Shown here piece by piece: positions 2,590 to 61,860 of a stretch of DNA of 64,000 nucleotides. The stretch's first letter is position 1. The number at the start of each line of letters is the position of its first letter. Made by a program: the position numbers and the translations under genes. Source of the stretch: Mesotaenium endlicherianum (taxonomy: Eukaryota); the NCBI GenBank assembly GCA_009602735.1, contig WELA01003606.1, positions 142,770-206,769 on the forward strand, read 5' to 3'. The notes under the pieces are model-generated. The model saw only the letters and a program-made list of their open reading frames with translations, ran no database searches and was not told the DNA's origin.

Positions 2590-4225
2590 AGGCTCGGTCT
2601 TCTCGGGAGCGAGACCTGGAATCGAATCTCCTTCTCCTGTCTCACGGTCTCCTGAAACCTGGGGGCTTAGGCCAGGGTGGCCCAACGGGTGAACGCAGCA
2701 ACTGGGCAGCCTGCTCTTGCACTGTCTGCAAGTTGATGGAGACCGCTCTCTCCTGTGCAGCTCTCAAACCGACAAGGACATACACTGGCATACCCGAGGG
2801 GTGCTGCATGACATGGGCTACGGGTACATGCCCTCTATGAGAGGGGGATGCTGGCTGCCTCCTTGGCAGCCCTTTTGTCTGCTCTTTCTGACTGAGTCTC
2901 ACCTCCTGGGGTGGGACTCCTCCTGCTGAAACTCCCCAACCACTGGAGATCTGGGTCTCTTGGTGGGCTGATATCCTTAAGCTGATGCAAGGCTGCCTGT
3001 GCCACGGACCTTTCAATTTGCTGCAGAGTGGGGGATGTAGCAGTGATCTGTGCCTCAACAGGGCTAGACTCCTCTCCGGCGCCTTCCTCCTCTTCGTCCT
3101 CCGGCTCCTCTAAGACTTCTGGAGTCTCTTTGGTCATCTCCTCCAGCCGCTCTCGAGGAAAAGAGTATCCCACTTACTTCCCCCTTTTGGGTGCAAGTGG
3201 GTGTTGCTGGGTCCTGACCGCATACAGGTCTTTCTCCCCTTGCTTACTTGCCCATTTGGCGTAAGCATGTTTCCCCTTGGAGAAAGAGTCTCTAGCCCTG
3301 GTCCTATCCTCCTGTGTCTCCTGACTCATGCAGTCCTTTACTCCATTTAGCCTTGGATCCCATGCTGCAATGTGAGGTGGCAGCACTATCTTGCCCTGCA
3401 AATCGTCTTCCTCAGCTCTGTCATTTTGCTGGTCCTTCATAGTGATGGTCATCCAGCGCCAGTCAGGGGGCTGTAGAAAGAAGCAAGATCCGTCCTCTTC
3501 AAAGTACAGGGTTACCAATGACCTGAGAAATCCAGTTGGCTGGTCTCCCTGGCCAAGAACTCCCAGCTTCTTCTCTCCACCTCGTTATACATGGCCTTGA
3601 ACCGGTTATGGGAAGTGGTATCCTTGAAGCAGTGTGTATGCATAAGGTTCATAGGGATAAACTAGTCTGTGCCCCAGATCCCAGGTATTGGCACCGTTCA
3701 AGATTCATCAATCTGGGCCAATGCTTTGGCCTCCCGGATCGTATACCCCACCATCCTGGCATAGGCATGGTACAATAGGAGCCCCGTGCTGACTTCAATG
3801 TACTTGTCAAAATTTTGGGCTGACTCCCCTTCCCGCTGCAGTATGTCCCTTTGTAATTCACTTTGGTTCCTGTGGGCGTCCTTGAAGGCCTCCTCCAAAA
3901 GATCAAAGCCCTTGCCCATGATCGTGTAGCGGTAGCTTTTGATTCTCCTCTGTTCCTCCTCAGCCTGCTGCTTCTGTCTCTCCGCAGCCAACCTTTGTTC
4001 CTCCGCCTTCTTGGCTTCCTCTGCAGCTTTTTTGTCCTGCTCCTCCTGTCTCAACCTTGCTTGTTCTTCCTCCTCCTTCCTCTTTTGAGCCTCCCGATGT
4101 AGTTGGAGTCGCTCTGATTCTCGAGAAGAGGTGGAGGATGATTCGATGTCGCCATGGAACTTCTTGTACTCCGCCTGTGCCTTGTCTGTCCTTCTTTTCC
4201 TCTTGAGTTCAGACAATTGAGTTAT
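2590..4225 (-). pseudogene. ORF3 accessory gene of A1 (allele I), disrupted; start codon reads ATA; 3' end approximate
   Basis: ORF pieces 3698-4234, 3174-3518, 2835-3173 and 2642-3058 are collinear with ORF3 of A2 and A4 (YRYTIMGKGFDLLEEAF, PPDWRWMTI, LPPHIAAWDPRLNG, GHVPVAHVMQHPSGMP). Confidence 0.85.
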
Positions 4226-7933: not shown

Positions 7934-10413
7934 TCATCCCCCTCCTCAAGATGCGACGTCCTCGACACATTCTGCAAATAACGTCTCAACTTATCCTTAC
8001 AATGAGTCAAGTTGGCCTCTGGCTCCCAAGTGTTGTCGTCCGCATGGTAGCCCTTCCACTTGACCAGATACTCTTGAACAAGTCGTTGACCTCGCTTGAC
8101 TCGTCGATCGCCGACAATCGCCTCCAAGTCATACTCCAATACATCATCAATCTCGACCGGTGGTGGCGGTGTGGGTAGTCGTCCTGGATGTCCTTCGTTC
8201 GGGTCAATGTATGGCCGCAAACAACTAACATGGAACATATCATGGATACGCCAGCCTGAAGGAAGTTCCAACTTTGTAACGATCCGAGCTATTTTAGGCG
8301 TATTTGGGACGTTTTCCCAATACCTAAAGAACGTTATACTATTTATCATATTATTTGATAAATAATTGCATCATATTCACTTATTCGCCACACGTGTGTG
8401 CCGATTAATTCCTGGTCGATTGGCGAAACGACCGAGATACTATTGCAAAAAGCGTCATAACGTAACTCGCCTACTTCGCAAAAGTACGACATAATTATTC
8501 ATAAAGTTACTTTGATTAATTATGAGATGATAACTTATTAAATCATTGATTGATTAAGTTGATTTGATTGTCATTATTTCGACAGTGCAAAATCACAAAT
8601 TTCGAATTTACGACCAGTCGTTAATACAAACAAACCGTCGTATCAAGATACGAACAAACCGTCGTATCAAGATACGAACAAACCGTCGTAAAGACAAACG
8701 AAACGAAATATGAAGAGTCGCTTTGCATCGACGCGGATTTGAACCCGCGACTTGTCGTTTGAAACGTTCACACCTAAACCAATTGGCCAAGAAGTTATTC
8801 GTAACTCCTGGTTCATGACGTAATTATTTGAACGTGACTCCGCGAACAGTCGCGACTTTTCGAAAAGTCGCGACTTTTCGAAAAGTCGCGAGAACGCGAA
8901 AACGCCCGTTTGGCGCGAACTGCTAGTCTGAAAACCATTGAAAAGTCTCCAAACCGCCAAACAGCGCGTTTCGAGCATTTGGCCGAATGGGACACGTCCC
9001 TTCGACCGTTTTCGTTGAACATGAACCAGTGCCCTAGGTGGTGACTCGAAGCACTCCAGTGCCTCATGTTCTGCAGGTATAAATACCTGTAGAGTCATTG
9101 TGAGTGCAACTCTCACAAGCACACATTCTACGTTAGTTTACATTTTCGCTCTTTCGAGTATTCGTCGATTTGCACAATTATACAGATTTTCCATCCACTT
9201 GAATTAAATATTCCTTGAATACCGAGGAAAGATCCTCTCGAGAAGCAGAAACGTAACAAACTTGTAGGTCACTGGATTCACCTGCTTGAGCACCACAAAG
9301 GGACCTGTAAATCGTGCCCACAGTTTCCTCTTGCCTGTGAAAGGTAGATTCTCTGTTGACAAGAGTACTTTGTCACCCACATGGTATGTCACTTCCCTCC
9401 TGTGCTTGTTGGCATACTTGACCTATTCCTTCTGTGCCTTCCGAATACACGTCTTCGCCATATCCCAAGTCTTGGCCATCTGCTCCATAAAAGCTTGTGT
9501 AGTAGGAACTTGAGTCTCCTTGGCCTTCTCCAACAAGATGTTCCCTGGATGATATACTTCTCTCCCATAAACCATAGCGAATGGTGACTGCTTGGTCGAT
9601 CCCTGCATGCTGTTGTTGTAGGCAAAATCCAATCCTGGTAACTTCTTGTCCCACTCTGAAGGGTCCTCCATAGTGAAACTCCTGAGCACCTCTTGCAGAG
9701 TTCTGTTGAGACTCTCACTTTGCCCGTCTGTCTGAGGATGATAGGAAGTGCTCATACTCAGCTTGGTCCCCATCAAAGTAAACAATGACCGCCAAAAGTT
9801 GCTTGTAAACCTTGNACCGCGGATCCCGGTCTGAAACAATCACCTTCGGTAACCCATGTAGCCTGAAAATATGATCAAAGAATAGCCGTGCCACATCCGC
9901 TGCCGTAGAAGTCTCCTTCATGGGAATGAAGTGAGCCATCTTGCTGAGTCTGTCAGACACAACCCATACTGCATCGTGCCCATGACCATTGACTCGTAAC
10001 GATGTGATGAAGTCCATAGCAATCTGCTCCCAAGGATACTTTGGAATAGGCAGGGGCTGCAATGTACCTCCCTTCTTTTGATTTGGTGTCTTGTTTCTCT
10101 GGCACGCATCACAACTCCTGATCCACTCCTCGATGTCCTTGTCCATATTTCTCCAATAGTACTCCCGCTTCAGCACGCTTGCCGTCTTCTCGCTTCCAAA
10201 GTGTCCAGCATACAAGCAATTATGATGCTTCGCAAGTAGTAAGTCTCGTACCTCCTTAATGTCAGGTACCACCACTCTCTTGGAATCACCATAATACCAT
10301 ATGCCGTCCTTCTTCTGCATACTCATGTTGGACTCAGCTGCTCCACCATCAGCAAACTCTGGGTCCTCCTCATAACCTCTCTTAAGCTTCTCCTTGAAGT
10401 CCATACTCTCCAT
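7921..10413 (-). pseudogene. B1 integrase plus chromodomain, interrupted by a C solo LTR
   Basis: HHNCLYAGHFG..CDAC zinc finger, AMDFITSL, SDRDPRF, FTGPF, and chromodomain EYDLEAIV..EYLVKWKGY..NTWEPE. Confidence 0.9.
8275..9258. repeat. Family C solo LTR
   Basis: TGTAAC...GTAACA ends, TSD AACTT at 8270-8274 and 9259-9263. Internal 24-bp (~8625-8690) and 18-bp (~8850-8890) tandem repeats; CpG-rich. Confidence 0.9.
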
Positions 10414-11439
10414 GCTGCATTTGCTAGACTACCACCCCAGAGTGTAGACTTGGGAGCATTGTTCGTTCAAATGCAGTCGCAAATGGCGACCATGTATCAG
10501 TCCCAACAGGAGGACAAAAGAATCATAATGTCTCTACTGCGAGACAGAGACCAACTGGAGTCTCAAACCACTGGTGGTGGTGGCCGAGGGCCTAGTAAGC
10601 CCAAGCCGAAAACACCCCAGGAATATGATCCTGAGGGAAACAGAAAATATTACCTGATCAAGTTTCTCGCGGATGTTGAGCAGTGGCTGGAGAACTACTC
10701 AGAATTGCAAGATTACGAGAAGGTCAGGCACACCGGTGCGCTACTAAAAGGCAGTGCCGCAGACTGGTGGCTAGACTGGAAAGGAGAGCGTAAGGCTCGG
10801 CAACTCGGTGACCCTACGTGGGTAGAGTTTGTAGAGAAGTTGCATGAGAAGTTTAATGTCATCAACCAGCAGGAGAAAGCTATCTATGCGATGATCTCCC
10901 TCACACTGAAGCAGACCACTTCAGTTGCTGAGTTTTCTCAAAAGTTCCAGGAGAACATGATGAAGCAGCCAGACTTGCCAGAACGGTATAGGATAGCATA
11001 CTTCACGTGTGGCTTGAAATCCGAAGTCTCTGGTCATTTCGCTGAGAAGAAGTATGAGAAACTGGCTGACTTGATCCAGGATGCTGATGCCTGGGATCAG
11101 CAGCAGTTCAATCACAAGCGCCAGAGTAACGCTTTGGTGTCTAAGATTGTCAAAAAGCCCCACGGTTCCTACAATGCAATTGAAGAAGACCAGGCTGAGG
11201 ATGATCAGGGTGATGGATATGAGTATGAGTATAATGCCATACAGTCTAGAGGTAGAGGTGGTTTCGCTCGAGGCGGCTATGGAAGAGGTGGTGGTAAGAC
11301 TAAGCCGAGACCAGCCTCAGCAGAATCGATTTGCTTCCATTGCCAGCAGCCAGGTCACTTCAGAGAGCAGTGTCCAGACAAGCACCTCCCAAAAGTCGAG
11401 AGAAAAGACCAGCTTTTAAAAGACAGCAACAGTCAGTAA
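10412..11439 (+). pseudogene. gag: A2 gag (N-terminus deleted)
   Basis: Retrotransposon capsid motifs LLKGSAADWW and LKQTTSVAEFSQKF, an RGG tract, and CCHC knuckle CFHCQQPGHFREQC. Confidence 0.9.
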
Positions 11440-14400
11440 TCCAGTCTACTGACTGTGAGGATGCTAGAGATAGTGAGTCGTCACTAGCTGCCCTCGTAGC
11501 AGGTATTATGGGTCCTGCTGAACTGGATTCACTATGCATGCCTGACAACCAAATAAAGGAGACCATCAGCAATAAAGACATCCAGAGAGTGGACACTCTG
11601 GATGCTCTTGTTCCACCTGATGTCCAACATTTCTTTGCTAAGTCAGGAGAACAATGCGAAAGTCAGGAAAAGACAGTCCCCCCTATTCTACTGCATTGCA
11701 TGATTGCAGGTAGGAAGGTGAGGACATTTGTTGACGGAGGAGCGTCACAAAGTTTTATCCATAAGGACTTAGTTAAGCGGCTAAGACATCCTACTGTCAC
11801 CCAAGGGAATAGAAAAATATTCCTTGGAGATGCCTCAAATATCCCGGGAGGAGTTATAACCAAGCCTATTGAGGTCGAGTTAGGTTCTGGCATTACAGTT
11901 CTAACTGAAACGCTTACATTTGAGGTACTCAACACTGGCTTTTATGATCTCGTGCTAGTCAGGACCGGGCTGAATAGACATCAAGCTGAAGTGTGTTGGA
12001 GCAGAGGTACAGTGAAAGTGAGAGGAGCCAGTAATGGGCAGACTGACTTGGCACCCACCAGTGCTCTTCCTCTTGTCCTGTGTGGATGGCAATTGAAGGA
12101 ATAGAGGAGGCTTCCAGAAGAATGCAAGTTGCTGAATGCAATGGAGTTTGTGAAAAGCTCGAACCAGAAGGAAGACAGAATGTTCTGTCTGCTGCTAAGA
12201 GAGGTACCTCCTAAACCTGAAGAAGTGGTTGAGGAAAAGGTAAGCCCTTGGAGCACCCTATTGCTGCGAAAATTGTTGCTCAGTACACGGGTAGTGATTT
12301 GAGTCATTTTATATTAGTTCGCATATATTTTAATGTTTTCAAATATATTTGGAGTAGTATTGTGTGGATTCAAGTGTGAATAGGTACTCTAGTGACTTGG
12401 TTCATGTCCTTGGAACCTTCTAAGGCATTTTCGAAGTTAGAGGAAAGACCTAGAAGAACTCCACGTGGCAAAAGTCAAATGTGCCATTTTTAGGTCAAAA
12501 GGACATGTGTACATTATTGTAGAAAGAGGTGGCAAGTTTTGGGATGTGTTGGGTGCCAACACATCAACATACACCTTCCTAGAAATTACTTATGTAGCAA
12601 GTATATAAACAAGAGCTAGAACACAGAAAGACATTCCAGAATCACTCTTGTACTTGCCAAAATCCAGAAATATATTAACTTTCAAGAAGCCATCTCTCTT
12701 TCAAGAAGCTACCACTTGTGTTCAAAGATACTTGTCTTGAATAGATAAAGTATTATATTTCACTAAGTACTTCATCTATTTGTTTCACTACAACACGGAT
12801 GTATGTAATATGCCTCCGTGACTACCCCCTAAGAGAGAAGTAGATTACAGGATAGATTTATTTCCTGGGAGTCAACCACCCTGGCAACGCACTTATGGCT
12901 TGTTTTATGTAGAGAGCGAGGAGTTGAAAACACAGATTGCAGAGCTTGAGGAAAATGGTTATATTTCTCCCAGTAAATCACCTTACGGCGCACCCATCCT
13001 ATTTGTTAAGAGAAACGATGGCAGTATGCGGATGTGTGTGGATTACAGAGCTCTGAATAAAATTACAGTAAAGAACAAGTATGCTTTACCCAGAATCGAG
13101 GACTTGCTTGATACCCTGTCTGGTGCTAAGGTGTTCAGAAAAATAGATCTCAAGAGTGGTTATCATTAAATCAGAATTGCTGAGGGGGATGTACACAAGA
13201 CTACCTTCCGCACACGTTATGGACACTATGAGTTCAACGTGATGCCATTTGGACTGACTAATGCTCCTGCGACCTTCATGGGTGCTATGAATGACATTTT
13301 CAGACCTTATTTGGATAAGTTTGTGCAAGTTTTCCTGGATGATATTTTAATTTTCTCTAAAGATGAAGCTCAGCACACTGAACACTTAAAGACAATCCTG
13401 GACACTCTGAGAAAAAATCACTTATATGCTAAAATGAGCAAGTGTGATTTCTTTAAAGAAAGAATTGAATTCTTAGGCCACGTTGTCAATAAAGACAACA
13501 TCAGTGTGGATCCTAAGAAAGTCCGGACCATAAGGAACTGTCCAGTACCACAGTCTGTCTTTGAACTTAGATCCTTCCTCGGGTTGGCTAACTACTATAG
13601 GAGATTTATTGAGAATTTTTTACAAAGGCCAGGAAACTGACTGACCTTACTAAGAAAGACATAGGGGACGTGTGGGGGGAAGAGCAGCAGGCTGCCTTCC
13701 AGACCCTTAAAAATGCTCTTTGTTCTGCCCCAGTGCTAGCCGTGTATGACCCCAGCAAACCGGTGCAGGTGGTTACTGATGCCTCTGACTTTGCCATGGG
13801 TGCTATTTTGTTGCAGCCTGCTGACAAAATCACAAACGATGGTAAGGTACGGCAGGAGTTGCATCCTGTGTTGTACGAGTCTATGAAATTTAATCCAGTG
13901 GAGATTGATTACTCAGTGCATGATAAAGAGCTGCTAGCTATCATTCATGTGCTCAAACAGTGGAGAGCATACTTACATGGTAAAGCTTTTAAGGTGATTA
14001 CAGATCATCTAGCTCTCACTCACTTTCAGAAGAAGTCCAAGCTGTCGAGGAGGGAGAACCGCTGGAGCCAGATGCTGGAGGAGTTCCAAGTCCAGATCGA
14101 CTACAAACCAGGGAAGTTGAATCCAGCTGATGCACTCTCTAGAAGACCTGACTTGCAAGGAAGAAACTTTAGTCAGCATGCTGTAGATAAAGTCCTGTGT
14201 GCACTCACTTCACGAAAGGTGAAAAAGTCCTTCCTTGAACAACTTAGGAAAGCCTACCTTTCTGACCCAACATTTGAGCCCAGCCCCACTACTGGTGTGT
14301 GTCGTGCTACTGCACTCGGGTATAAACTTGAGGGAGGGGTCTGGGTGACTGAAACCACTTCAGGCAGGCTGAAGCTGGTCATTCCTAATAACTTGGAAAT

Positions 14401-15688
14401 ACGGTCCCTTTTATTGAGTCAAGCACATGACAGTCTACTGAGTGGGCATTTGGGGCAGGCCAAAACTGTTGGCAAACTGGCAAAACATTATCATTGGGAG
14501 GGATTGCCCCGGGTGGTCTTGAAATATGTGAAGTCCTGTGATCAGTGTCAAAGAAATGAGTCTAGGCACACACCCCCGGGAGGTCTCTTGCAACCGCTGC
14601 CCATCCCAGCGGGCCGCTGGGAAACTATATCCATGGACTGGGTGGTTACACTACCACGAACTGCTAATGGGCATGATTCGATACTGGTAGTCGTGGATAA
14701 AGTGACAAAAGTGGTCATTTTCATCCCCACTACTGTCAAAGTAACTGCGCTCGAAACAGGGAGACAGTTCTACAACCATGTAGTATGCCAACATGGACTA
14801 TCCTCTAATATCATCTCAGACCGAGACTCAAAATTTACCTCTAAGTTCTGGAGAGCTTTAATGGGGTTAACGGGAGTCAAACAGCTGCTCAGCACAGCAA
14901 ACCACCCTCACACTGATGGGCAGACTGAAAGAACAAACCGAGTTCTGCAGGAGGTGCTGAGAGCATATATTAACCAAAAACAAGATAATTAGGATGACCT
15001 GTTGCCTCAAATTCAGTTTGCGGTCAACAGTGCGGTGCACGCGTCAACGGGCAAGACTCCTTTTGAACTCAGCCTGGGTAGAGTCCCTAAGTCTCCTTTA
15101 GATGTACTGGGGGAGTCTTTAACTTACCCTGAAGGGATTGACAATCGGGTCTCCCTCCAGTTAACTCAGGAGTTTGCTGACACCCTGTCAGAAGTCCAAC
15201 AAAACCTGCATAAAGCTCAAGAAAACCAACAAAAATACGCTAATCAACACCGCCGGGAGCTGACATTTTCTAAGGGCGATTTAGTCAAACTGCATTCTCA
15301 GCACCTGTACCTCCCTGGTGTGGTCAAGAAAAAGCTTGGCCCCGTCTGGGTCGGTCCATATTCGGTGGTACGTCGTGTTGGTCAGAATGCTTACAAACTG
15401 AACATGTCGGCGGACTACAAGCGTTACCCGGTCTTTAATGTCTCCTTCCTGGAACCATACATCAAAGGTGATACACTGTTCACAGGTCGGCAACCCTGAG
15501 GAATATGAGGTCGATGAGATTTTAGACGCTCGCTCGGTCCGTCGATCGTCTAAATATGCCATGAAGTACCTCATCCGATGGAAGGGTTACGATGCCTCTG
15601 GGGACACTTGGGAGTTCAAACACCAGCTGAACAATGCCAAGGGGCGTTGAAAAGGTTCCACCTTCGGGCGGCTTGGGCACCGCCCTAA
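11415..15688 (+). pseudogene. pol: A2 pol (PR-RT-RH-IN-chromodomain) in the -1 frame, disrupted
   Basis: FVDGGAS protease, [10 protein letters not shown] and [19 protein letters not shown]ase H, HHCC and DDE integrase, WVGPY, chromodomain YLIRWKGYDASGDTWE. Confidence 0.92.
12290..12792. repeat. Family D solo LTR (503 bp)
   Basis: Termini (G)GTAGTGA...TCACTACA and TSD ACACG at 12285-12289 and 12793-12797; interrupts A2 pol. Confidence 0.88.
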
Positions 15689-15927
15689 CTGTCCCTTCAG
15701 TAGACATGGGCAGGTGACAGGAGGTCCTGTCTCCATATAAGTTGGAGGAGGATGTGACAGTTAGTGACAGTTGTGACAGGCAGCCCACCTTTAAAATTAA
15801 GTTGGAGGGAGTGGTATTCTATTTCGGGATCAACCGGAAAATCACTGATAACCATATTACACACTCAACCTGCGCTCACACTCACTTTCTCTCTAACTCA
15901 ATTTTCCCTTATATTCACTCACACCAG

Positions 15928-16035
15928 GTATTTCACACTAGGAACTCTCCCGATCGCGTTCCTCTTCATCAAGGGCACTCAGTAGCGGCAAAAAATCATG
16001 ACCTCACTAACTGCATTGTGTTTATGATTGAGCAG
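15928..16035 (+). other. Predicted spliceosomal intron in the ORF3 5' leader of A2
   Basis: CAG|GTATTT donor, CACTAAC branch site, GAGCAG|GATG acceptor. Equivalent introns in A1 (4227-4332), A3 (31913-32018) and A4 (40537-40644). Confidence 0.7.
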
Positions 16036-16036
16036 G

Positions 16037-17698
16037 ATGACTCAAAAGTCGGAACTCAAGAGGAAGAGAAGGGCGGAAGAGGCACATGCAGAATACTCGC
16101 AATTCCGTGGAGACGTCGAATCATCCTCCATCTCCGCTTGGGAATCACAACGACTCCAACAACAGCGGGAGGCACAGAAGAAGAAGGAGGAGGAGGAGGC
16201 CAAACTGAGGTAGGAAGAAATGGACAGAAAAGCTGCACAGGAAGCCAAGAAAGCAGAGGAGGAGAGGCAAGCTGAGGAGAGGCGGAAGCATCAGGATGAA
16301 GAAGAGGAGAGGAGAATCAGCAGCTACCGCTACACAGTACTGGGCAAGGGCTTCGATCTACTGGAAGAGGCCTTCAAGTATGCTCAGAGAGGTCGCAGTG
16401 AGTCACAGAAGGACATCCTCCAGAGGGAAGGAGTGACATCCGAAAACTTTGACAAGTATATAGAGGCCAGCACGGGGCTCCTCCTCTACCACGATTACGC
16501 CAGGATAGTAGGATATACGGTCAGAGAGGCCAAGGCAATGGCCCAGGTGCACGAAGCAGGGGCTGTATCGATTCCTGGTATCTAGGGGGAAGATAGGGTC
16601 ATCAGGATGATCCCCATGGACGCAGACAGCTTTAAGGACTCCACATCCCATAACAGGTTCAAGGCCATGTATAATGAGGTGGAGAGAAGGAGCTGTAAAT
16701 TCTTGGCCAGGGAAACCAGTCAGCTGGACTTTGCAGGGCACTGGCACCCTTGTACTCTGAAAGGGACAGACCCTGCCTTCTTCCAGAAGCCCACCGATTG
16801 GCGGTGAATGACCATCAACATGAGGGACCAGCAGATTGAGAGGGCGACGGATGAGGATTTCCTGACAGACCTAAAGGGGAACATAGTATTGCCCTCTCAC
16901 ATTGCGGCTTGGGACCCAAGATTGGATGGAGTCAGAGACTGCATGAGCCAAGAAATGCAGGGGGACAGAAGTAGGGCCCGAGAGTCATTCTCAAAAGGGA
17001 AGCACGCTTATGCCAACTGGGCAAGCAAGCAGGGGAAAAAGGACCTGTATGCGGTCCGAACTCAGCAGCCCCGACCAGCACCCAAAAGGGGAAGGTCAGT
17101 GGGATATTATTTTTCTCGGGAAGAACTGGAGCAGCTGACAGAAGAGACCCCAGAAGTCTCAAAGGAACCCGGGGACGGAGAGGAGGAGGAGTCAGAGGAA
17201 GACGAGGAGGAAGGCGAGGAGGAGGACACTAGCCCCGCCGTGATCCTGACACCTGCCACATCCCCTGTAAGGGAGAAGACTGAGTCGGCCCTGCAGCAGC
17301 TCGCTGAAGAGGAGGATATCACTTGGCTGGGAACTGCCATGGGACAGAGCCCATCTCCAGGCACGGAGACCTAGTCAGACAGGGCAGACAAGAGGGCTGC
17401 TAGAGTAATAGCCAGAGGCCTGCCAGCATCTCCCTCGCAGAGAGGGCATGTACCCTTAGCTCATGTCATGCAACATCCTTCTGGGATGCCGATATATGTA
17501 CCAGTCAGTTTGAGGGATGCCCCGGAAAAGGCTGCCTCCATTCAGTTTCAGACCGTGCAGGAGGAAACAGCACAGTTACTGCGTTCTCTGCCGGGTCCCG
17601 ACATGGAGCCTCCCTCTCTGACAGGCTTCAAAAGACCCCAAGACAGGAGGAGGACTCACTCCCCTAACCATAGGGCCCCAGGGGCATCTCCCTCCTAA
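16037..17698 (+). pseudogene. ORF3 accessory gene of A2 (allele I), 553 codons in one frame with 4 nonsense substitutions
   Basis: ORF pieces at 16028, 16220, 16607, 16808 and 17468 are all in frame. Layout: KRKRR, coiled-coil, conserved core, acidic tract, C-terminal GHVPLAHVMQHPSGMP. Confidence 0.9.
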
Positions 17699-18906
17699 GG
17701 GCGGAGGGCCAGGGGCATAGCATGCTAGATGGGAGAGGGATCAGTAATTTCAGTTGGGGAAACCTATGTACCCTTTGTCAATGTTGTCGAGGCGACAACG
17801 TGTTAAGTTGGAGGGACTGTAATGAATCAGTATATTGGTTGATATAATATTTATTTAAATAAAACAGTTTAATAAGTTCAGCCTGCTAAACTCTAGTTAA
17901 TAATCAGTCTGCTGGACTTTATATTTAATATCAGTTTAATGACTCAGTCGGAAGCAGCAGGCTGGAGTCAGCTTAAGTCAGCTTGCTGACACATTCTTTG
18001 ACAGCCAGCTGACTTTCGTACTCGGTAGCACCGAACTGCCTCGATATGCATCTAAGTGTGATATGCTAGATGAATGGCCAGATGACATCCCTACGATGGA
18101 TGGCGATTCGGGATGATGGGAGATGGCGGTTGTAAGGTCATAGGTTTATAAAGTGCATTTTTGAGTCTCATGAAAGTATGATTTGATTGTATAGTAGTGT
18201 AGAGTGCATTTTTGTGGACATTTTGATATAAAGTTCATCGAATTTGGTCAAGTATTGAGAGAATTATGGATTTCCGAAGTTTAATTAGTTTTGAGGTCGG
18301 CTGACGACTGTCCTTAATTCGCGGTGAGCGCGACCGTCGGATTGACCGACAGCGCCGAGCGATCTGGCCCGTTAGAATGAACTCGAACCTTCACGTAAGT
18401 TCGGCTGACGCGGAGTGCCGACTAGGACGATTTACCAAGAAGTTTCGGTTTAGCCTAGCGCGTCTAAGATAGAAAATTCTAGTAATGTCGATGCATGTAT
18501 ATGGACGTCAATTCGGCCCGACACGTCAGATTAGACTGATCTGGCTTACTCACGAATATTCTGGAAGGGACGATTTGACGAACACTTAAGAAAATCCGTA
18601 GCTTCCTCCTAGGGAGGAGCACTTAGGCAGAAAATTATAAATAGGCATAACTTCTTTGTTTCTTATCAGTTTTCACTTCCGTAAATTCCTACGGGTTTGT
18701 AATGACAAGGCCTTTCATCCTACATCATTTGTGAGCAATTTCTTGCCACTCAAAATGTCAAGTAATTTTCCTAAGCCTTCTTAGCAATATGCCGCTGCAC
18801 TCTTGAGTATGATGGCAACTAGCTTTGTTCCTCGTGAGTCACTACGCTTCCACTAGGGCACTCTGCCCTTTTCATCTGGTATCGGAGCAGGGCTGATTAT
18901 TATATT

Positions 18907-19925
18907 ATGGATTCGCAGTCGGTAGCTGGAGGAGGCAAACGTGTTGAGCATGTTGAGCGCGCGGGGCAGCAGGCAGCACCAACAATGACCAGAGAGCAAC
19001 AAGAGATGCAGGCGATGCTAAGGCAATTGGAGGAGAAGTCTACACCCAGTTTCAACAAAATATGCGCGCGGAGGTGGAGAGAATGGTGCGAGTTGTTATG
19101 GGGAACGTCGCTTCGACGAGTTCGGCACCTGCACCTGTTGTGCCACCGATTCATGTTAACCCAGTGGTGCAACCAATTATTCCACCCGCATCAGGAGTGC
19201 GTGCGCCTAAGCCTGAAGTTTATACTGGAGAGCGTGGATCGCCGTCTGTTCATCAATGGATTTTTGGAGTGAAGAACTTTATGGAGTACTCTGCGCTCAC
19301 GCCCGACAGGCAAGTCGCCTTTGTCATAACTTTGCTGCAGAAGAGTGCTGGAGCTTGGTATGAACGAGAAGAGCAGTTGTTTGGAGTTCCTGCTACTGTT
19401 GATCAGCTCTTTGAAGGCTTGAAGAGGCAATTTCAACCTATTGCACCCGAGGCTACCGCTCGAGATCTATTGGTGCGCCTTCGTCAGCGAGGAAGCGTTC
19501 AGGAGTATGTATCGCGCTTCAACGAGCTGGTGCTTCAATGTCCATCCATGCACGAGTCGGAGATGATGGACAAGTTCAAGAGGGGACTCAAGCCAACTGT
19601 GGCCAAGGAAGTGGCGCTCAAGGACCCTACCAGTCTTGGAGAAATGATGGCATTGGCAACAAGGGTCGACGCTGTGGAGTATAGTCAGAGGCAGTGGGGC
19701 AGCCACAACTTTGGAGGATATCGACACTTTGGATCTCAAGCGCCAAGCACGAGTGGACAAGGCCCAGTACCCATGGAGTTGGGACTTGTGCAGTACCAGC
19801 GCAGGCAGCAGAATTTCAAGCCGAGAGGACCGTGCTATAGTTGCGGCAAGCTTGGACATCTGGCTCGAGACTGTCATGTGAAGGCGAAGCAACCTCAACA
19901 GCAGGAAAAAGGAGGACGCCAGTAA
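18907..19925 (+). pseudogene. gag: B2 gag (one frameshift near 19045)
   Basis: PKPEVYTG, LRQRGSVQEYVSRF, GPVPMELG, and CCHC knuckle CYSCGKLGHLARDC. Confidence 0.9.
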
Positions 19926-22900
19926 GTCGTTCTGGGGTGTCTACTGGCGTGAAGACGAGAACTCACAAGGAGGTTATCCCCAGGAGCCTGCCGAGAAGCA
20001 AAAGACGAGATGTTGACAAGCCTCTCATCGTGGAAGGAGTGGTCGACGGCAACAAGGCGAAGTGTATGGTCGACAGTGGCGCAAGTGCAGATTTTGTGCA
20101 CAAGAAGCTGGTGGAACAGTGGCGAATCCCTGTGCAGAAGCATTATGAGCCTAAGGAGGCAATTTTGGCTAATGGGCAGAGACTCAAGTGTGGTGCACCT
20201 ACGAAAGCTATTCACGTGGAAGTAGCGGGGCACCAGAATCAGGAAGTCATGGAGCAGGCAGAGTTAGGTCACCATGCGGTGATATTGGGCCGACCATGGC
20301 TNACCATGAGGTGATATTGGGCCGACCATGGCTAAGAAAAGCCAACCCTCAAGTGCACTGGAGCACAGGACAAGTGAAAGTCCAAGGGTGTGATGGTCGA
20401 ATGGAGACAGCAAAACAGGTTGAGGTAGATACGACCACAAGTAACTGTCTTCTGTCGAGCCTGCAAGTTAAGAAGCTATGCAGGGCGAATCAGGTGAAGG
20501 AGATGCACCTTGTTTCGGTGATCCAGGCCAGGTCATCAGATGGAGCAAGCGTGATTCCTAACAGCCTGGGCGAATGTACATCGCCGGAGGAGCAAGTAGT
20601 GGTGTCTGATCCCCTTGCTCAGAAGGAGCAGAGCCCAACTGCTCAAGAGAAGAAGCCTGCTGAGATGCCTGCCCAAATTAAGGCGCTTTTGGAGGAGTTC
20701 AAGTGCGTATTTCCTGAGGAACTACCTGCAGGATTACCTCCACAGAGAGCTATGGAGCACCGGATTGAGTTGGAACCAAGGAGCAAGCCACCAGTGAGAC
20801 CCGCCTATCGACAATCGTTTGCGGAGTTGGATGAGTTGAAGAAGTAGCTGACAGGGTTGTTGGAGAAGGGATTCATCCGACCCAGCGAGTCTCCATTTGC
20901 AGCGCCAGTCTTATTTGTGAAGAAGAAGGATGGGACTATGAGGATGTGTGTTGACTATCGGGCTCTCAACAAGGTCACCATCAAGAACAGGTACCCACTT
21001 CCACGAGTGGACGAGTTGATTGACAGGCTTGTCGGGGCGAAGTATTTCTCAAAGATCGATTTGAGGAGTGGCTATCACCAGGTACGGATTGCGGAAGGAG
21101 ACGTTCAGAAGACTGCTTTCAGAACTCGCTATGGTTTGTTCGAGTTCACAGTCATGCCTTTTGGATTGACTAATGCACCTGCTACATTCATGAAACTTAT
21201 GAATAGTATCTTCACGCCCTACTTGGACCAGTTTGTGGTGGTATTTTTGGACGACATCCTGATCTATTCAAAGACCTTGGAGGAGCATGTGGGGCATCTG
21301 AGGAAGGTGTTGGAGGTCTTGAGAGATCAAAAGCTGTGTGGGAAGATGAGCAAATGCGACTTCTGTCTCAAGGAGGTCGAGTTTCTTGGACACATAGTGG
21401 GAGCTGAAGGAGTCAAGGTGGAGCAGAAGAAGGTGCAAGCAGTCAGAGATTGGCCGGTACCTGCTGATATTCATCAACTCAGGAGTTTCCTCGGCATGGC
21501 GAATTATTATCGACGTTTCATTGAAGGATTTGCCAAGGTATGTGCACCGCTCACGGACATGTTGAAGAAGCAGGAGAAGTGGCTATGGGGTGACAAGGAG
21601 CAGCAAGCATTTGAGAAGATTAAGGAGCTGTTGACACAGGCACCTTTGTTGGCAATTGCAAGTCCAGAGCTTCTTTTCACCATCATCACAGACGCGTCAA
21701 ACTTTGCAATGGGAGCCATTCGTCTCCAGGACCAGGGCAAAGGATTGCAGCCTGTGGCATATGAGAGCAGGAAGTTGAGTCCTGCTGAGCAAAACTATGC
21801 AGCACACGAGCGGGAGATGTTGGCTATTATCCAGGCTTTGAGGATTTGGCGATGTTATGTGGACGGCCGGAAGGTGTTCATAAAGACCGACCACAAGAGC
21901 TTGGAGAAGTTTATGACGCAGCCAACGTTGAAACCAAGACAAGCAAGGTGGATGGAGTTTCTGCAACAATTTGACCACAAGATTGAGTACTTACCTGGGA
22001 GACGCTCTATCCAGGAGGTGTGACCTTGCAGCTGTTTCAGTCATTAAGGAGAATATGGACTTCAAGAAGAAGCTTCAGAGAGGTTATGAGGAGGACCCAG
22101 AGTTTGCTGATGGCGGAGCAGCTGAGTCCAACTCGAGCATGCAGAAGAAGGACGGCATATGGTATTATGATGATTCCAACAGAGTGGTGGTACCTGACAT
22201 CAAGGAGCTACGAGACTTACTACTTGCGGAGCATCATGACTGCTTATATGCTGGACACTTGGAAGCGAGAAGACGGCAAGCGTGCTGAAGCGAGAGTACT
22301 ATTGGAGAAATATGGACAAGGACATTGAGGAGTGGATCAGGAGTTGTGATGCGTGCCGAGGAAACAAGACACCAAATCAAAAGAAGGGAGGTACATTGCA
22401 GCCCCTGCCTATTCCAGAGTATCCTTGGGAGCAGATTGCTATGAACTTCATCACATCGTTACCAGTCAGTGGTCAAGGGCACGATGCAGTATGGGTTGTG
22501 TCTGACAGACTCAGCAAGATGGCTCACTTCATTCTCATGAAGGAGACTTCTACGGCAGCGGATGTGGCACGGCCATTCCTTGATCATATTTTCAGGCTAC
22601 ATGGGTTGCCGAAAGTGATCGTTTCAGATCGGAATCCAAGGTTCACTAGCAACTTTTGGCGGTCATTGTTTACTTGATAGGGACCAAGCTGAGTATGAGC
22701 ACTTCCTATCATCCTCAGACAGACGGGCAGAGTGAGAGACTCAACAGAACTCTGCAAGAGGTGCTCAGGAGTTTCACTATGGAAGACCCTTCAGAGTGGG
22801 ACAAGAAGCTACCAGGGTTGGAGTTTGCCTACAACAACAGCATGCAGGGATCCACCAAGCGGTCACCATTCGCTATGGTTTATGGGCGAGAAGTATATTA

Positions 22901-23561
22901 TCCAGGGAACATCTTGTTGGAGAAGGCCAAGGAGACTCAGGTTCCTACTACACAAGCTTTTATGGAGCAGATGGCCAAGACTTGGGATATGGCAAAGACG
23001 TGTATTCGGAAGGCACAGGAAGAGCAGGTCAAGCATGCTAACAAGCACAGGAGGGAAGTGACATTCCATGTGGGCGGCAAAGTACTCTTGTCCAAAGAGA
23101 TCATACCTTTCACAGGCAAAACGAAACTGCGGGCACGATTTACAGGTCCCTTTGTAGTGCTTAAGCAGGTGAACCCAGTGGCCTACAAGTTGGAACTTCC
23201 TTCAGGCTGGCGTATCCATGACGTGTTCCATGTCAGTTGTTTGCGGCCATACGTTGACCCGAATGAAGGACATCCAGGACGACTACCTACACCGCCACCA
23301 CCGGTCGAGATCGATGACGTATTGGAGTATGAAATGGAGGCGATTGTCGGCGATCGACGAGTCAAGCGAGGTCAACGATTTGTCCAAGAGTATCTGGTCA
23401 AGTGGAAAGGGTACCATGCGGACGACAACACTTGGGAGCCAGAGGCCAACTTGACTCATTGTAAGAGTAAGTTGAGACGTTATTTGCAGAATGCGTCGAG
23501 AACGTCGCATCTTGAGGAGGGGGATGATGTAAGGTCAGAGGTTTATAAAGTGCATTTTTGA
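19904..23561 (+). pseudogene. pol: B2 pol (PR-RT-RH-IN-chromodomain) running into the 3' LTR; one stop and several frameshifts
   Basis: [71 protein letters not shown]. Confidence 0.93.
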
Positions 23562-25082
23562 GTTTCATGAAAGTATGATTTGATTGTATAGTAGTGTAGA
23601 GTGCATTTTTGTGGTCATTTTGATATAAAGTTCATCGAACTTGGTCAAGTATTGAGAGAATTATGGATTTCCGGAGTTTAATTAGTTTTGAGGTCGGCTG
23701 ACGACTGTCCTTAATTCGCGGTGAGCGCGACCGTCGGATTGACCGACAGCGTCGAGCGATCTGGCCCGTTAGATAGAACTCAAACCTTCACGTAAGTTCG
23801 GCTGACGCGGAGTGCCGACTAGGTCGATTTACCTAGAAGTTTCGGTTTAGCCTAGCGCGTCTAAGATAGAAATTTCTAGTAATGTCGATGCATGTATATG
23901 GACGTCAATTCGGCCCGACACGTCAGATTGGACTTATCTGGCTTACTCACGAATATTCTGGAAGGGACAATTTGACGAACACTTAGGAAAATCCGTAGCT
24001 TCCTCCTAGGGAGGAGCACTTAGGCAGAAAATTATAAATAGGCATAACTTCTTTGTTTCTTATCAGTTTTCACTTCTGTAAATTCCTACGGGTTTGTAAT
24101 GACAAGTCCTTTTATCCTACATCATTTGTGAGCAGCTTCTTGCCACTCAAAATGTCAAGTAGTTTTTCTAAGCCTTCTTAGCAATATTCCGCTGCACTCT
24201 TGAATATGATTGCAACTAGCTTTGTTCCTCGTGAGTCACTACGCTTCCACTAGGGCACTCTGCCCCTTTCAGTGGTGGATTTGGTTAACCGAGGTCCTAC
24301 CAACGTGGTTAACTCCCGGGTAGGCGGTGCCATCGCACTGGCCGTTGAACAGTAAACTCATTCCATGTACATATGCTAGGCATTGCTCTCGAGTTCGACA
24401 TTTGGAAACGAGGCCAACTCTCTTGTACAGCTTATTGAGAGAGATCTGAATCCAAGGCGAGAAGCCATTGATACGCACTGTCTTCTAACCTTACTTATGT
24501 ATGAGTTTACTGATTGCATTATTGATGCTCGTTTACTTGCATTTGATTTACGAGTGTTGTTCAGTGCTAGTGTGTTGTCCTTTTGCCGTTTAATCAGTTA
24601 ACTTAAAATCCATAAAGATTACTTGCTGATATAAAGATCTTTATTAATTGTTGATCGCCTATTTGGTAAGTCGATTCATTTCATCGTATCTACCTCCACC
24701 TGTTTCGCTGTCTCCATTCGACCATCACGCCCTTGGACTTTCACTTGTCCTGTGCTCCAGTGCACTTGAGGGTTGGCTTTTCTCAGCCATGGTTGGCCCA
24801 ATGTCACCTCTTGGTGACCCAACTCTGCCTGCTCCTTAACTTCAGTACTCTGGTGCCCCGCTACTTCCACGTGAATAGCTTCCGTAGGTGAACCACACTT
24901 GAGTCTCTGTCCATTCGCCAAAATTGCCTCCTTAGGCTCATAATGCTTTTGCACAGGGATTCGCCACTCTTTCACCAGCTCCTAGTGCTCAAAGTTTGCA
25001 CTTGCGTCACTGTCGACCATACACTTCGCCTTATTGCCGTCGACCACTCCTTCCACGATGATAGGCTTGTCAACGTCTCGTC

Positions 25083-25539: not shown

Positions 25540-28500
25540 ATAACCACTCTTGAGATCTATCTTACTGAACAATTTAGCACCAGACAGGGTATCAAGCAAA
25601 TCCTCGATTCTGGGTAAAGCATACTTATTCTTTACTATACTTCTGTTAAGAGCTCTGTAATCCACACACATCCGCATACTACTATTCTTTTTCTGAACAT
25701 ATAGGATGGGTGCGCCATAAGGTGATTTACTGGGGGAAATATAACCATTTTCCTCCAGCTCTGCAATCTGTGTTTTCAACTCTTCGCTCTCCACATAAGA
25801 CAAGCCATAAGTGCGTTGTCAGGGTGGCTGACTCCCAGGTAATAAATCAATCCTGTGATCTACTTCCCTCTTAGGGGGTAGTCCTGGAGACATATTATAA
25901 ACATCATTGCACTGAGCAACGATTTTTGCAGCAGTAGGGTGCTTCGGAGGGCTTACCTTTTTCTCGACCACTTCTTCAGGTTGAGGAGGTACCTCTCTTA
26001 GCAGCAGACAGAACATTCTGTCTTCTTTCTGGTCCCAGTTTTTGGATGAACTCCATTGCATTCAGCAATTTGCATCCTCCTAGAAGCCTCTTCTTTTCCT
26101 TCATTTGCCATCCATACAGGACAAGAGGAAGAGCACTGGTGGGTGCCCAGTGAGTCTGCCCATCACTGGCTCCTCTCACTTTAATTGTACCTCTGCTCCA
26201 ACACGCTTCAGCTTGATGACTATTAAGCCAGGACCTGCCTGGCACGAGATCATAGAAGCTAGTGTTGAATACCTCAAATGTAAGCATTTCAGTTAGAACT
26301 GCAATGCCAGAACCTAACTGGACATCAATAAGCTTGGTTATAATTCCTCCCGGGATACTTGAGGCATCTCCAAGGAATATTTTTCTATTCCCTTGGGTGA
26401 CAGTAGGCAGCCTTAGCCGCTTCACTAAGTCCTTATGGATGAAAGTATGTGACGTCCCTCCGTCAACAAATGCCCTCACCTTCCTATCTGCAATCATGCA
26501 AAGCAGTAGGATAGGGGGCACTGTCTTTTCCTGACTTTCGCATTGTTCTCCTGACTTAGCAAAGAATTGTTGGACATCAGGTGGAACAAGAGCATCCAGA
26601 GTTTGCACTCTCTGGACGTCTATATTGCTGATGGTCTCCTTTATCTGGTTGTCAGGCATGCATAGTGAATCCAGTTCAGCAGGACCCATAATACCTGCTA
26701 CGAGGGCAGCTAGTGACGACTCACTATCTCTAGCATCCTCACAGTCAGTAGACTGGATTACTGACTGTTGCTGTCTTCTAAAGGCTGGTCCTTTTCCTTG
26801 ACCTTTGGAAAGTGCTTGCTAGGACACTGCTCTCTGTAGTTGCCCAGCTGCTGGCAGTGATAGCAAACAGATTTTGCTAAGGCTGGTCTCGGCTTAGTCC
26901 TACCACCACCTCTTCCATAGTCACCTCGATAGTAACCACCTCTCCCTCTAGACTGCATAGCATTATACTCATACTCATACTCATCACCCCGATCATCCTC
27001 AGCCTGGTCTCTTTCTATTGCAATGTAGGAACGGTGGGGCTTTTTGACAATCTTAGACACTATAGCATTACTCTGGCGCTTGTGATTGAAATGCTGCTGA
27101 TCCCAGGCATCAGCATCTTGGATCAAGTCAGCCAGTTTCTCATACTTCTTTTCAGCAAAATGACCTTAGACTTCGCATTTAAAGCCATACCTGAAGTATG
27201 CTATTCTATACCGCTCTGGCAAGTCTGGCTGCTTCATCATGTTCTCCTGGAACTTTTGAGCAAACTCAGCAACTGAAGTGGTCTGCTTCACTGTCAAGGA
27301 TGTCATGATTTATTGAGTCGAGGATGACGTATAAAACCAAGCTGTACGTGTGTGAACCATCAACCTAGGAAGATTGACTTTGCATTAACTTTACGCATCC
27401 ATATATTGACCTTTTCTAGATTTCCGAGTCACCAAAGTGTAGCGCGTCGAAGCATTTTCCGAATGGCACCGGTTTCGCGTCATTTGGTTAATTATCGAGC
27501 GAGATACACGCGATCTAGTCCGCACTCCTTTCTGCACCTAGCGAAATCACACCAAATGGCCAACTTGTGACTCAATGCACCCAAAGGTGACAATGTTGAC
27601 TATTCGTGATCCCAAGGACCCCTAGCTTTGTGCGCACAAATCCGCGAGCCCTTTAGACTACATAAGTCTTGCATTCCATAGTATAAGTGCATCATTGAGG
27701 CTATAACTTGGTGACTGCATCACCTACCCCTAGAGGAAGCTTCCTCAAGTTCCAGATTCACTTTTGAGGCGCTATCTAGGTAGAACTACCCAAGGTAAGC
27801 TCCACCAATGAGAGACACTTAGCATGTTTTACGTGCTTTGCTTTGATTGGTTTGAGTTATGCTTAGCCTATAGGAGTCCTAGTACATGCCCTGTACACAT
27901 TAGTGGATATAAGAGAGCCTCCTACAGTGACTACATACATTGGATCCGCCGCATACGACGCCGGGTTTCTAGGAGTATAAGTGCTAGAGGTGTCCCTAGA
28001 GGGACATCTTCTTAGAAGTCCCATTATGCCAATTGTAAGTCACAGAGACTATCAGTAAAGCTTACACTTTTATCTCTTGTGTTTTCAGGACCACATAGTC
28101 TCTCTCTTGTGAAGGGCAAGCCTTGCTGGCTTCCAGTCACAAGAAGAACTTAACAAGTAGTGAGCAAAGTCACAGCTTATACCCTCTGCCATAGGACTAC
28201 TCTTGAAGATCATGATGTGCTTCCAGAGATCTTTTGGGCCAGACTTTATTAGTTGTTTTCTTACCATATTACAGTTTTGACGTGCTCACTCTGGAGAGTA
28301 CACACTCCTTAATTAAAACATTTGACGCTTGATTGTCTTCTATCTATAAAGCCACATGTATTATAGACTTCATTACAGCAAAGCCTGCTTGCTTATTATG
28401 CATTGCTTGTGTTGATAATACGCACCCGACCTCCTACCGCACAACAAGGAGATCATTGCATAGATAGCTTTCTCATACTGATTGATGACATCAAACTTCT

Positions 28501-29386: not shown

Positions 29387-29420
29387 ACAAAGAAGACTCT
29401 GATAACTGCTCCGATACCAC

Positions 29421-30122
29421 TGAAATGAATTGTCTTACCTAATAAAGATCTTTATATCAGTAAGTTATCTTTATGGATTTTCCGTTAACTGATTAAACGG
29501 CAAAAGGACAACACACTAGCAGTGGACAACACTCGTCAATCAAATGCGAGTAAACTAGCATCAACAATGCACTCAATAAACTCATACATAAGCAAGGTTA
29601 GAAGACAGTGTGTATCAATGGCTTCTCGCCTTGGATTCAGATCTCTCTCAGTAAGCTGTACCAGAGAGTTGGCCTCGTTTTTAAATGCCGAACTCGAGAG
29701 CAACGCCTAGCATATGTACATGGAATGAGTTTACTGTTCAACGGCCAGTGCGATGCCACCGCCTACCCGGGAGTTTACCACGTTGGTAGGACCTCGGTTA
29801 ACCAAATCCACCGCCATCTCCCATCATCCCGAATCGCCATCCATCATAGGGATGTCATCTGGCCATTCATCTTGCATACCACACTTAGATGCATATCAAG
29901 GCAGTTCGCTGCTACCGAGCACGGAAGTCAGCTAGCTGTCAAAGAATGTGTCAGCAAGCTGACTTAAGCTGACTTCAGCCTGCTGCATCCGGTTGAGTCA
30001 TTAAACTGATACTAAATATAAAGTCCAGCAGACTGACTATTAAGTAAAGTTCAGCAGGCTGAATTTGATTTACTATTACATTTAAATGAATATTATATCT
30101 ACTAATATACTGATTCATTACA
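29421..30122 (-). repeat. Family A LTR shared by A1 (as 5' LTR) and A3 (as 3' LTR)
   Basis: PBS complement at 29408-29419 on one side and PPT complement ATCCCTCCAACTT from 30123 on the other. Confidence 0.92.
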
Positions 30123-30234
30123 ATCCCTCCAACTTAACTTGTTGTCGCCTCGACAACATTAAACTGCAGGAGTCTTTAATCAGGAAGCTGAACTTGACCC
30201 GCCTCTCCCAGTGACTGTCCCTTCAGCCTGTTGC

Positions 30235-31911: not shown

Positions 31912-32278
31912 CCTGTACATGAAACCAGGGCATAAGTTAGTAGGATATCGACCTTTGTCATAGGGATTGCAGGCAGGAAGTATGTTTGTATTAGTATGGT
32001 GGATTCGCTCCTGTTTACCTTACAGGGTGATTGCTAAAAGTCGACGTAGTTGCGGTGCGCTAACATAAACGTATGAATATGTTTTAAGTTGAGTTAAGTG
32101 AAGTTAGCTCAAGGTGCTTTATGTGGGCCAGGCTGTCCCATCTGTCACTATGCTGACACTTAGGATTCACGTAACTGTCCCTTTATCGCTCTCGTTCACT
32201 AATTGTCATATATTTTCCCCTCCAACTTAAATGGAGACAGGACCGCCTGTCACCTTCCCATGTCAACTGAAATGACAG

Positions 32279-37797: not shown

Positions 37798-37831
37798 ACA
37801 AAGAAGACTCTGATAACTGCTCCGATACCAC

Positions 37832-56714: not shown

Positions 56715-56774
<60 letters not shown>

Positions 56775-60714: not shown

Positions 60715-60766
<52 letters not shown>

Positions 60767-61829: not shown

Positions 61830-61860
<31 letters not shown>

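Follow-up and report, generated by a model that had tools for sequence, protein, structure and literature searches.

A constrained accessory gene on an apparently exchanged cassette between pol and the 3' LTR of a chromovirus family in Mesotaenium endlicherianum

Results

Two nested Ty3/gypsy families with integrase chromodomains

The window, by which we mean the whole 64,000-nucleotide stretch of Mesotaenium endlicherianum DNA that was analysed (contig WELA01003606.1, positions 142,770 to 206,769), is occupied over bases 1-47,000 by nested LTR retrotransposons. These belong to two Ty3/gypsy families (A and B), each with an integrase chromodomain. Each of the four family-A copies (c1 to c4) has a sense-strand open reading frame of about 555 codons (ORF3) after the chromodomain and before the 3' LTR, and the four translations are related, as had been claimed in an earlier note made from the sequence alone. 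The parts of elements c2 and c3 and the ORF3 copies are placed as follows.

10413-15500, plus strand: gag-protease-RT-RNase H-integrase region of c2, broken, with an insertion at about 12290-12792
15501-15647, plus strand: chromodomain of c2 (PF00385, E 2e-9), in a frame differing from that of the c2 integrase
16037-17698, plus strand: ORF3 of c2, 553 codons with four internal stops, laid out as a basic N-terminus, a charged helical stretch, a core (about residues 96-360), an acidic tract, a conserved C-terminal motif and an SP-rich tail
17818-24685, plus strand: 3' LTR of c2, in two pieces (17818-18130 and 24274-24685) on either side of a family-B element (18131-24271)
29440-38548, minus strand: element c3 between its LTRs (38548-37832 and 30122-29440, 97.4% identical), with the PBS at 37830
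2590-4225, minus strand: ORF3 of c1, with stops, two frameshifts and a mutated start codon; core 75% identical to c2 and c4
30235-31911, minus strand: ORF3 of c3, the divergent cassette type, 558 codons with two internal stops and an RS-repeat tail
38882-40535, minus strand: ORF3 of c4, with stops and frameshifts; core 84% identical to c2

Family A has the features of a chromovirus. Its domains run in the order gag-protease-RT-RNase H-integrase (Pfam and tblastn map), the chromodomain sits at the integrase C-terminus, in frame with integrase in c3, and its LTRs are of the TG...CA form with a PBS and a PPT; a 5-bp target duplication flanks a solo LTR of family A and is seen for family B as well, but none was seen around the whole family-A copies of the nest. 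We take the PBS to be that of tRNA-iMet, a plant-type primer site. Among named proteins, those closest to family-A pol come from Closterium and Tetradesmus (38-49% identity). By eye, the chromodomain retains the cage-type aromatic residues, and group I chromodomains with an aromatic cage are restricted to non-seed plants and algae (PMC6317226). Taken with the primer site and the pol relatives, these residues point to a streptophyte alga or bryophyte as the likely host. The clade signs are mixed, with the tRNA-type PBS fitting Chlamyvir or Galadriel and the overlapping gag/pol frames fitting Tcn1, a clade that is mostly self-priming (PMC6317226). Family B has no ORF3; its PPT and LTR start fall within the last pol codons.

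Several rearrangements accompany the nesting. Family A has a fifth gag-RT block, at 29419-25540. It is the 5' half of c1, which a family-B element has interrupted, leaving a 5-bp target duplication; the block thus belongs to c1, and the count of ORF3 in four of four family-A elements stands. At 29419-30122 (minus strand) the 3' LTR of c3 runs straight into a PBS and c1 gag, forming a tandem pair with one common LTR that is 97% identical to the 5' LTR of c3 and 86% identical to the 3' LTR of c1. Likeness between c1 and c4 is about 91% over the 5' half of c1 and about 85% over its 3' half, which together with the LTR mismatch suggests that c1 may be a recombinant. Inserted in the c3 protease region is a solo LTR of family A (35382-36102, minus strand), flanked by a 5-bp target duplication, and partial family-A LTR starts directly precede full LTRs at 38549-38811 and 46914-47359 (minus strand), suggesting that family A inserted into its own LTRs or was tandemly duplicated. 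Gag and protease share about 130 nt in overlapping frames, shifted alike in each of the four copies (11304-11439, plus strand; 44812-44680, 36678-36558 and 26893-26761, minus strand), as would be expected of a programmed -1 frameshift. Non-coding repeats have also inserted in the elements (692-1609 with 8275-9258; 1-477 with 12316-12792; 27307-28444), of which the piece at 8275-9258, with a TG start, a CA end and duplicated 5-mer flanks, resembles a solo LTR of a third family.

ORF3 was maintained by purifying selection

ORF3 begins about 350 nt past the end of pol. It is in sense orientation, longer than 250 codons, separate from pol and present in 4/4 window copies, which places it in the class described as aORF-3S or eORF-3'F (sense, at least 250 codons, separate from pol, in most copies). 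None of the four copies is intact, each being broken by its own mutations. The sole stop position common to two copies is codon 183 (c2 and c4), where the stop triplets differ, so these were separate events. Counting the terminal stop, the ORF3 frame has 5 stops in c2 and 3 in c3, far fewer than the 10-29 of the other five frames, and the frame is therefore open beyond chance. Where c3 has its first stop, the contigs of runs X1 and X5 all read otherwise, so that this break is private to the c3 copy.

Constraint was estimated by the Nei-Gojobori method with bootstrap on in-frame pieces, skipping codons with a stop or N and leaving out the C-terminal pieces past the c1 and c4 frameshifts. For c2 and c4, codons 1-450 gave a dN of 0.078 and a dS of 0.306 (dN/dS 0.26, 0.19-0.35), with 0.20 for the core alone and 0.46 (0.22-0.99) for the acidic region. 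The c2-c1 comparison gave 0.07 (0.03-0.12) for the core and 0.12 and 0.05 for two pieces; synonymous sites of the c2-c3 ORF3 pair are saturated, hence without a reliable ratio. Five pol controls gave 0.08-0.33, and the constraint on ORF3 is about equal to that on pol. The purifying selection proposed in the earlier note is thus borne out wherever it can be measured (dN/dS 0.05-0.26), and the ratio near 1 that it had named as contrary evidence did not appear in any measurable pair. Values of 0.05-0.26 imply that ORF3 was once a working gene.

The ORF3 protein has nuclear-type motifs and no recognised relative

The KRKRR patch named in the earlier note is present in c1, c2 and c4 and missing from c3; the other motifs that it listed are there too, decayed to differing degrees from copy to copy. 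About 80 residues form a charged helical stretch, after which come the core of about 265 residues and a second basic patch. The acidic tract reaches a net charge of -11 to -18 per 50 residues, and a low-complexity tail holds the conserved C-terminal motif. Each copy has several SP/TP sites (4-9), and the tails of c1 and c3 are R/S-rich. The basic patches are NLS-like, short motifs from which a nuclear location is predicted. In a Kyte-Doolittle scan the best 19-residue hydropathy mean was 0.2-0.8 and the N-terminus was hydrophilic, in agreement with the reported absence of a transmembrane stretch or signal peptide; with no membrane segment, ORF3 is not env-like.

The description of ORF3 as an unrecognised family also held: no relative was found in Pfam, among 1.84 billion representative proteins, in the PDB or in BFVD. 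Against Pfam, the c2 and c3 translations returned just coiled-coil noise under the cut-off and five core rows matched nothing. The profiles for Athila ORF-1 (PF03078), Transposase_28 (PF04195), the plant mobile domain (PF10536), DUF390 and other described extra ORFs gave no match at E up to 1 or 10, a result compatible with remote homology; a match to an already described extra-ORF family, which would have counted against novelty, was accordingly not found with Pfam profiles at E up to 10. Word-index searches confirmed none of 4434 candidates for the c3 core and none of 6865 for the core alignment against longer proteins, and HMMER with the 426-residue stop-free stretch of c3 found nothing among the 1.84 billion representatives. 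There were no ESM Atlas features for ORF3, the single match to PDB sequences had an E of 0.31, phage records yielded no relative, the one pattern match in viral contigs was unconfirmed and none of the 50 and 384 pattern matches in metagenome contigs was confirmed. These collections are poor in eukaryotic transposon ORFs, so the empty searches are weak evidence.

Structure prediction, which the earlier note had recommended for the core, was run with AlphaFold and Foldseek and gave no usable fold match. Two predictions on five-row alignments were poor (pLDDT 44.5 and 38.4), and the fold search with the first model (pLDDT 44.5) had a best Z of 5.3 (rmsd 3.7, 106 aligned) and a Foldseek E never below 0.001. 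As both models are poor, the fold searches are uninformative. The sequence and fold searches that were run returned no homologue, domain or fold suggesting DNA or chromatin binding, and no description of this ORF3 family was found in the open-access literature searched.

The unit between PPT copies appears to have been exchanged between elements

Copies of the PPT mark both sides of the region that contains ORF3. PPT-like words are kept two to three times per element, the second, in c1, c2 and c4, lying 60 nt past the first.

15739-15752, plus strand: first PPT-like word, directly after the pol end and followed by TG, where family B begins its LTR; kept in 4/4 copies
15797-15810, plus strand: second PPT-like word, 14 nt identical to the true PPT; exact in c1, c2 and c4, missing from c3
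17782-17816, plus strand: hairpin and true PPT before the 3' LTR, right edge of the putatively exchanged cassette (folding z -1.9 in c2, -3.9 in c3)

Over the RNase H-integrase region, DNA identity is 93.0% for c2-c3, 92.4% for c2-c4 and 91.5% for c3-c4, with c1 at 85-86% to all. In the ORF3 core the ranking differs: amino-acid identity is 84% for c2-c4, 75% for c1 against these two and 45-50% for c3 against the others, and 96 columns of the core alignment are identical across all four copies. Between c2 and c3, DNA identity is 0.88-0.94 in pol, 0.68-0.81 in the cassette (gapped windows) and 0.93 in the LTR; in sliding windows it drops past about 15,770 and returns at about 17,780, and these limits match the positions of the PPT-word copies. 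Synonymous divergence follows the same division, with a c2-c3 dS of 0.14 in pol and saturation in ORF3, and a dS for c1 of 0.37-0.41 in pol versus 1.2-2.7 in ORF3. A c3 core so divergent on a pol backbone 93% identical to that of c2 implies that cassettes were exchanged between copies, shown here by identity and dS among four taxa rather than by a formal tree test, and the unit between the PPT copies is older than its backbone. Rapid protein evolution of c3 in place of exchange was ruled out, its synonymous sites and leader having diverged too.

Two other candidate features of the cassette were tried and discarded. Its first 287 nt match LTR A or LTR B no better than shuffles do, which ruled out a decayed LTR, and a hairpin before the first PPT-like word was dropped on folding not above shuffles (z -0.5 and -0.1).

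Both cassette types are widespread. In DNA run X1, 12,240 contig records match the c2 region and 7,008 the c3 region, and summed depth is about 60,000-270,000 over the c2-type ORF, about 100,000-460,000 over the c3-type ORF and mostly 420,000-660,000 over the pol end (single contigs, 50-110). These depth sums, which are not copy numbers, show that family A is very abundant and that both types are common. The c2 cassette is found in part under four organism labels, with small shares for B, C and D. In run X5 (organism B) one contig matches the c3 type over 1,248 nt with 66 differences; some single contigs depart from c3 at a conserved motif and then, by eye, resemble c2. On this thin evidence, both cassette types occur under two organism labels.

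A predicted leader intron and a TGACAG array precede ORF3

The space between pol and the ORF3 start codon holds a further set of conserved signals.

15715-15779, plus strand: TGACAG-type array of c2, words at 15715, 15755, 15765 and 15774
15928-16035, plus strand: predicted leader intron of c2, 108 nt, GT...AG, with a branch-point-like word 30 nt before the ATG and the acceptor 1 nt before the ATG
4332-4227, 32018-31913 and 40644-40537, minus strand: predicted leader introns of c1, c3 and c4, 106-108 nt

All four leaders have AG/GTA at 107-109 nt, a branch-point-like word at 29-30 nt and CAG/G directly before the start codon. The 200-nt c3 leader has diverged to the point that 52-159 of 200 shuffles align equally well to the others. 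It nevertheless passes the donor, branch and acceptor tests at the common offsets, a result reached by 0 of 200,000 shuffles (product of the single rates, 8e-7). Among upstream ATGs in the last 240 nt, all lie inside the predicted intron in c1, c2 and c4, and 3 of 5 do so in c3.

TGACAG-type words number 4-7 per element between the pol end and the ATG and are spaced at about 10 nt in c1, c2 and c4. Shuffle means are 0.6-1.0 and 0-2 of 300 shuffles match the count, for a motif that was picked after inspection. No enrichment was seen in the LTRs, pol or family B; within ORF3 itself the word is slightly above chance (13-16 of 300 shuffles). Its reverse complement resembles an auxin-response element. 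The array also resembles a site for TALE homeodomain (KNOX/BELL) proteins: BELL proteins bind TGACAGG/CT (PMC13470011), and KNOX/BELL activate the zygote in Chlamydomonas and Marchantia (PMC8478417, PMC8476127).

Transcription was examined in three polyA runs for c2 and two for c3, with 6-12% of each run covered. The c2 region (3.2 kb) drew 144, 127 and 132 reads from the three runs, mostly sense on the LTR and antisense on the pol end, assuming the usual stranded protocol. The RNA check that had been suggested for ORF3 was answered in part: sense reads fell on the core in one run of three (X23, 16304-16735, depth 3-9, 1-3 start places), and no spliced read crossed the predicted intron in the 6-12% of the three c2 or two c3 runs. 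Over the c3 ORF the two runs gave nothing except three partial matches to the acidic tract. RNA depth at 17168-17275 was discarded as unrelated transcripts cross-mapping to the acidic tract, with loose ends on both sides. Family A is thus close to silent in the sampled RNA runs. Under the same assumption on strandedness, the polyA reads on the integrase end and chromodomain (14900-15760, plus strand; 32188-32700, minus strand) are nearly all antisense and stop near the first PPT-like word, candidate sources being host-gene read-through or an antisense promoter at the cassette edge.

Discussion

Relation to known extra ORFs and accessory genes

Extra sense-strand ORFs downstream of pol and ahead of the 3' LTR form a known class in plant LTR retrotransposons, and their role is a long-standing question (PMC7264820). 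Of 782 Tekay chromoviruses, 18% have a 3' forward extra ORF (Neumann et al. 2019; PMC6317226, Additional file 5), so that, of the contrast drawn in the earlier note, the ending of family B at its chromodomain stands and the idea that extra ORFs are foreign to plant chromoviruses does not. Most extra ORFs of the survey are without a known domain; in the parts of it drawn on here, none is listed for Chlamyvir (44 elements), Tcn1 (1500), Galadriel (270), Reina or CRM, and charophytes are not mentioned (PMC6317226). ORF3 resembles the aORF-3S / eORF-3'F class in position, orientation, presence in all family copies, lack of a known domain and possible splicing. It differs in its host lineage, in a chromodomain type of non-seed plants and algae and in having no transmembrane segment, the comparison with Tekay ORFs being one of descriptions. 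The extra ORFs of sunflower Tekay elements have an NLS, helices and disorder, but are 5' (PMC11728184), and other retrotransposon extras carry known domains (PMC9289625; bioRxiv 10.64898/2026.05.21.726589). The extra-ORF class itself is known; new, as far as searched, are the ORF3 protein family, the clade of its host, a leader intron conserved across copies and old cassette types that were exchanged.

Parallels of layout exist in more distant elements. Maize Grande, of the Retand/Tat group, has an extra 3' gene (gene23, aORF-3R) with a nuclear product and its own promoter (PMC7264820). These two properties, shown for gene23, are predicted for ORF3; unlike ORF3, gene23 is antisense and belongs to a non-chromovirus. 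The tas/bel region of foamy viruses has a spliced leader. In these viruses an accessory regulator lies between the structural genes and the 3' LTR with an internal promoter, and there are central and 3' PPTs (PMC7828637). These are retroviruses, and the analogy is one of layout, not of sequence or fold. The anti-silencing VANC proteins act on short motifs arrayed in the non-coding DNA of their element. VANC is a transposon-borne orphan of VANDAL elements with a coiled-coil (bioRxiv 2024.04.02.587720). VANDAL, however, is a DNA transposon, the MAIL1-like domain of VANC was not detected in ORF3, and ORF3 offers the motif array as its side of the likeness. CERV of C. elegans Cer1 is a novel nuclear phospho-regulated protein made from a spliced mRNA of an LTR retrotransposon (PMC10309623); it comes from an animal element, and general searches surfaced no homology with ORF3. 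For the exchange of cassettes, recombination among Athila families is a precedent (PMC2410132).

A putative nuclear regulator of element transcription

The reading that we favour, tentatively and at somewhat short of an even chance, is that ORF3 is a selected accessory gene on an exchanged cassette, with its own predicted spliced transcript, whose product is a likely nuclear regulator that switches on or shields transcription of the element. It is favoured on the anatomy of the protein (basic patches, a helical oligomer segment, a globular core, an acidic tract and a short motif) together with a leader of its own and a coupling to integrase that is loose; the nuclear location and the anti-silencing or targeting role are putative. 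A promoter inside the element, past the first PPT-like word and ahead of the splice donor, would produce a short non-coding exon joined to the ATG, although the first exon may instead come from the 5' LTR; splicing of this leader would remove the upstream ATGs located in the intron. The TGACAG array may confine the transcript to a narrow stage, for example the zygote, and expression of this kind would leave the transcript nearly missing from ordinary RNA. The protein would enter the nucleus through its basic patches and oligomerise through the charged N-terminal helix. Its aromatic and basic core would bind the DNA or chromatin of the element, while the acidic tract and the conserved C-terminal motif would recruit host factors. 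Template switching during reverse transcription, between homologous sequences around both PPT regions, would shift old cassettes onto young pol backbones. The fuller version of this scheme is a second transcription unit like that of foamy viruses, with a KNOX/BELL-driven internal promoter active in the zygote, a transactivator or anti-silencing protein of new fold and a PPT-bounded module of ancient swapping types that outlast host species boundaries; we regard this combination as rather improbable.

A role in RNA handling is doubtful. Here the product of the spliced RNA, like Rev or CERV, would bind the unspliced genomic RNA and secure its export or packaging despite the splice sites, and a conserved intron in the genomic RNA must indeed survive if the cassette is to be inherited. 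ORF3 has numerous SP sites and, in c1 and c3, R/S-rich tails, features reminiscent of RNA-processing proteins. CERV, a nuclear phosphorylated protein needed for export of Cer1 genomic RNA, sets a precedent (PMC10309623). However, Pfam found no RNA-binding domain in ORF3, the likeness to CERV is not based on sequence, family B thrives alongside without such a gene and the persistence of old cassette types is left unexplained.

We consider it improbable that ORF3 is a silencing suppressor or other antagonist of host defence acting in trans, with two old types each countering a different host factor. Deep types that coexist on one backbone and under two organism labels are the pattern that host conflict would be expected to leave, and Tekay extra ORFs have been proposed to modulate RNA silencing (PMC11728184). 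Against this, all measurable pairs are under purifying and none under positive selection, a comparison of four copies having little power, and neither Pfam nor inspection by eye gave a dsRNA-binding or GW/WG-repeat signature.

About equally improbable is a cofactor that works with integrase and the chromodomain in cDNA import or target choice, the extra PPTs then being central PPTs. PPT-like words are kept two to three times per element, active elements are marked by central PPTs, which have been linked to nuclear import (PMC7197481), and insertions of family A are found both in other family-A copies and in family B. Yet an ORF3 45% identical on an integrase region 90% identical argues against a tight co-evolving contact, and family B nests likewise without ORF3.

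A captured-passenger origin, in which a host gene or second small element was caught between two PPT copies and has no role in transposition, is unlikely indeed. The cassette begins with TG straight after a PPT-like word and has its own predicted intron, as a captured transcription unit would, and all four copies are broken. Its c2-c4 dN/dS of 0.26 at whole-element divergence (dS about 0.3 in both ORF3 and integrase) nevertheless shows selection while inside the element. Protein searches found no cellular relative, an unneeded intron would probably be lost through RNA passage, and the leader has no likeness to LTR A or LTR B. An env-like or movement protein for cell-to-cell spread is highly unlikely: position and orientation fit env-like sense ORFs, some of them spliced (PMC7264820), but ORF3 has no hydrophobic segment (19-residue mean at best 0.2-0.8), its N-terminus is hydrophilic and no viral fold was matched, using a poor model.

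ORF3 comes with handles that most extra ORFs lack, namely a predicted transcript structure, a candidate cis-element and two protein types about 45% identical in one genome; family B adds an ORF-less neighbour control, and the host has public RNA runs. Were ORF3 a true regulator or anti-silencing factor, a chromovirus of a non-seed lineage would be using a retrovirus-like accessory gene. Cassette exchange also shows how accessory genes can be far older than the elements carrying them.

Sequences adjoining the transposon nest

Beyond the nested elements, a 784-codon open frame at 49752-52106 (plus strand), without a Pfam match, contains several AT-hook-like KRGRP or RGRP words. A GC-rich host gene at 53610-62000 (minus strand) is likewise unmatched by Pfam; by eye we take pieces of it to resemble the C-terminus of an SNF2 helicase, in degenerate form, and a C-terminal motif of the MOM1 type. 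A silencing-related gene adjoining a transposon nest, for which this gene is a candidate, would be noteworthy.
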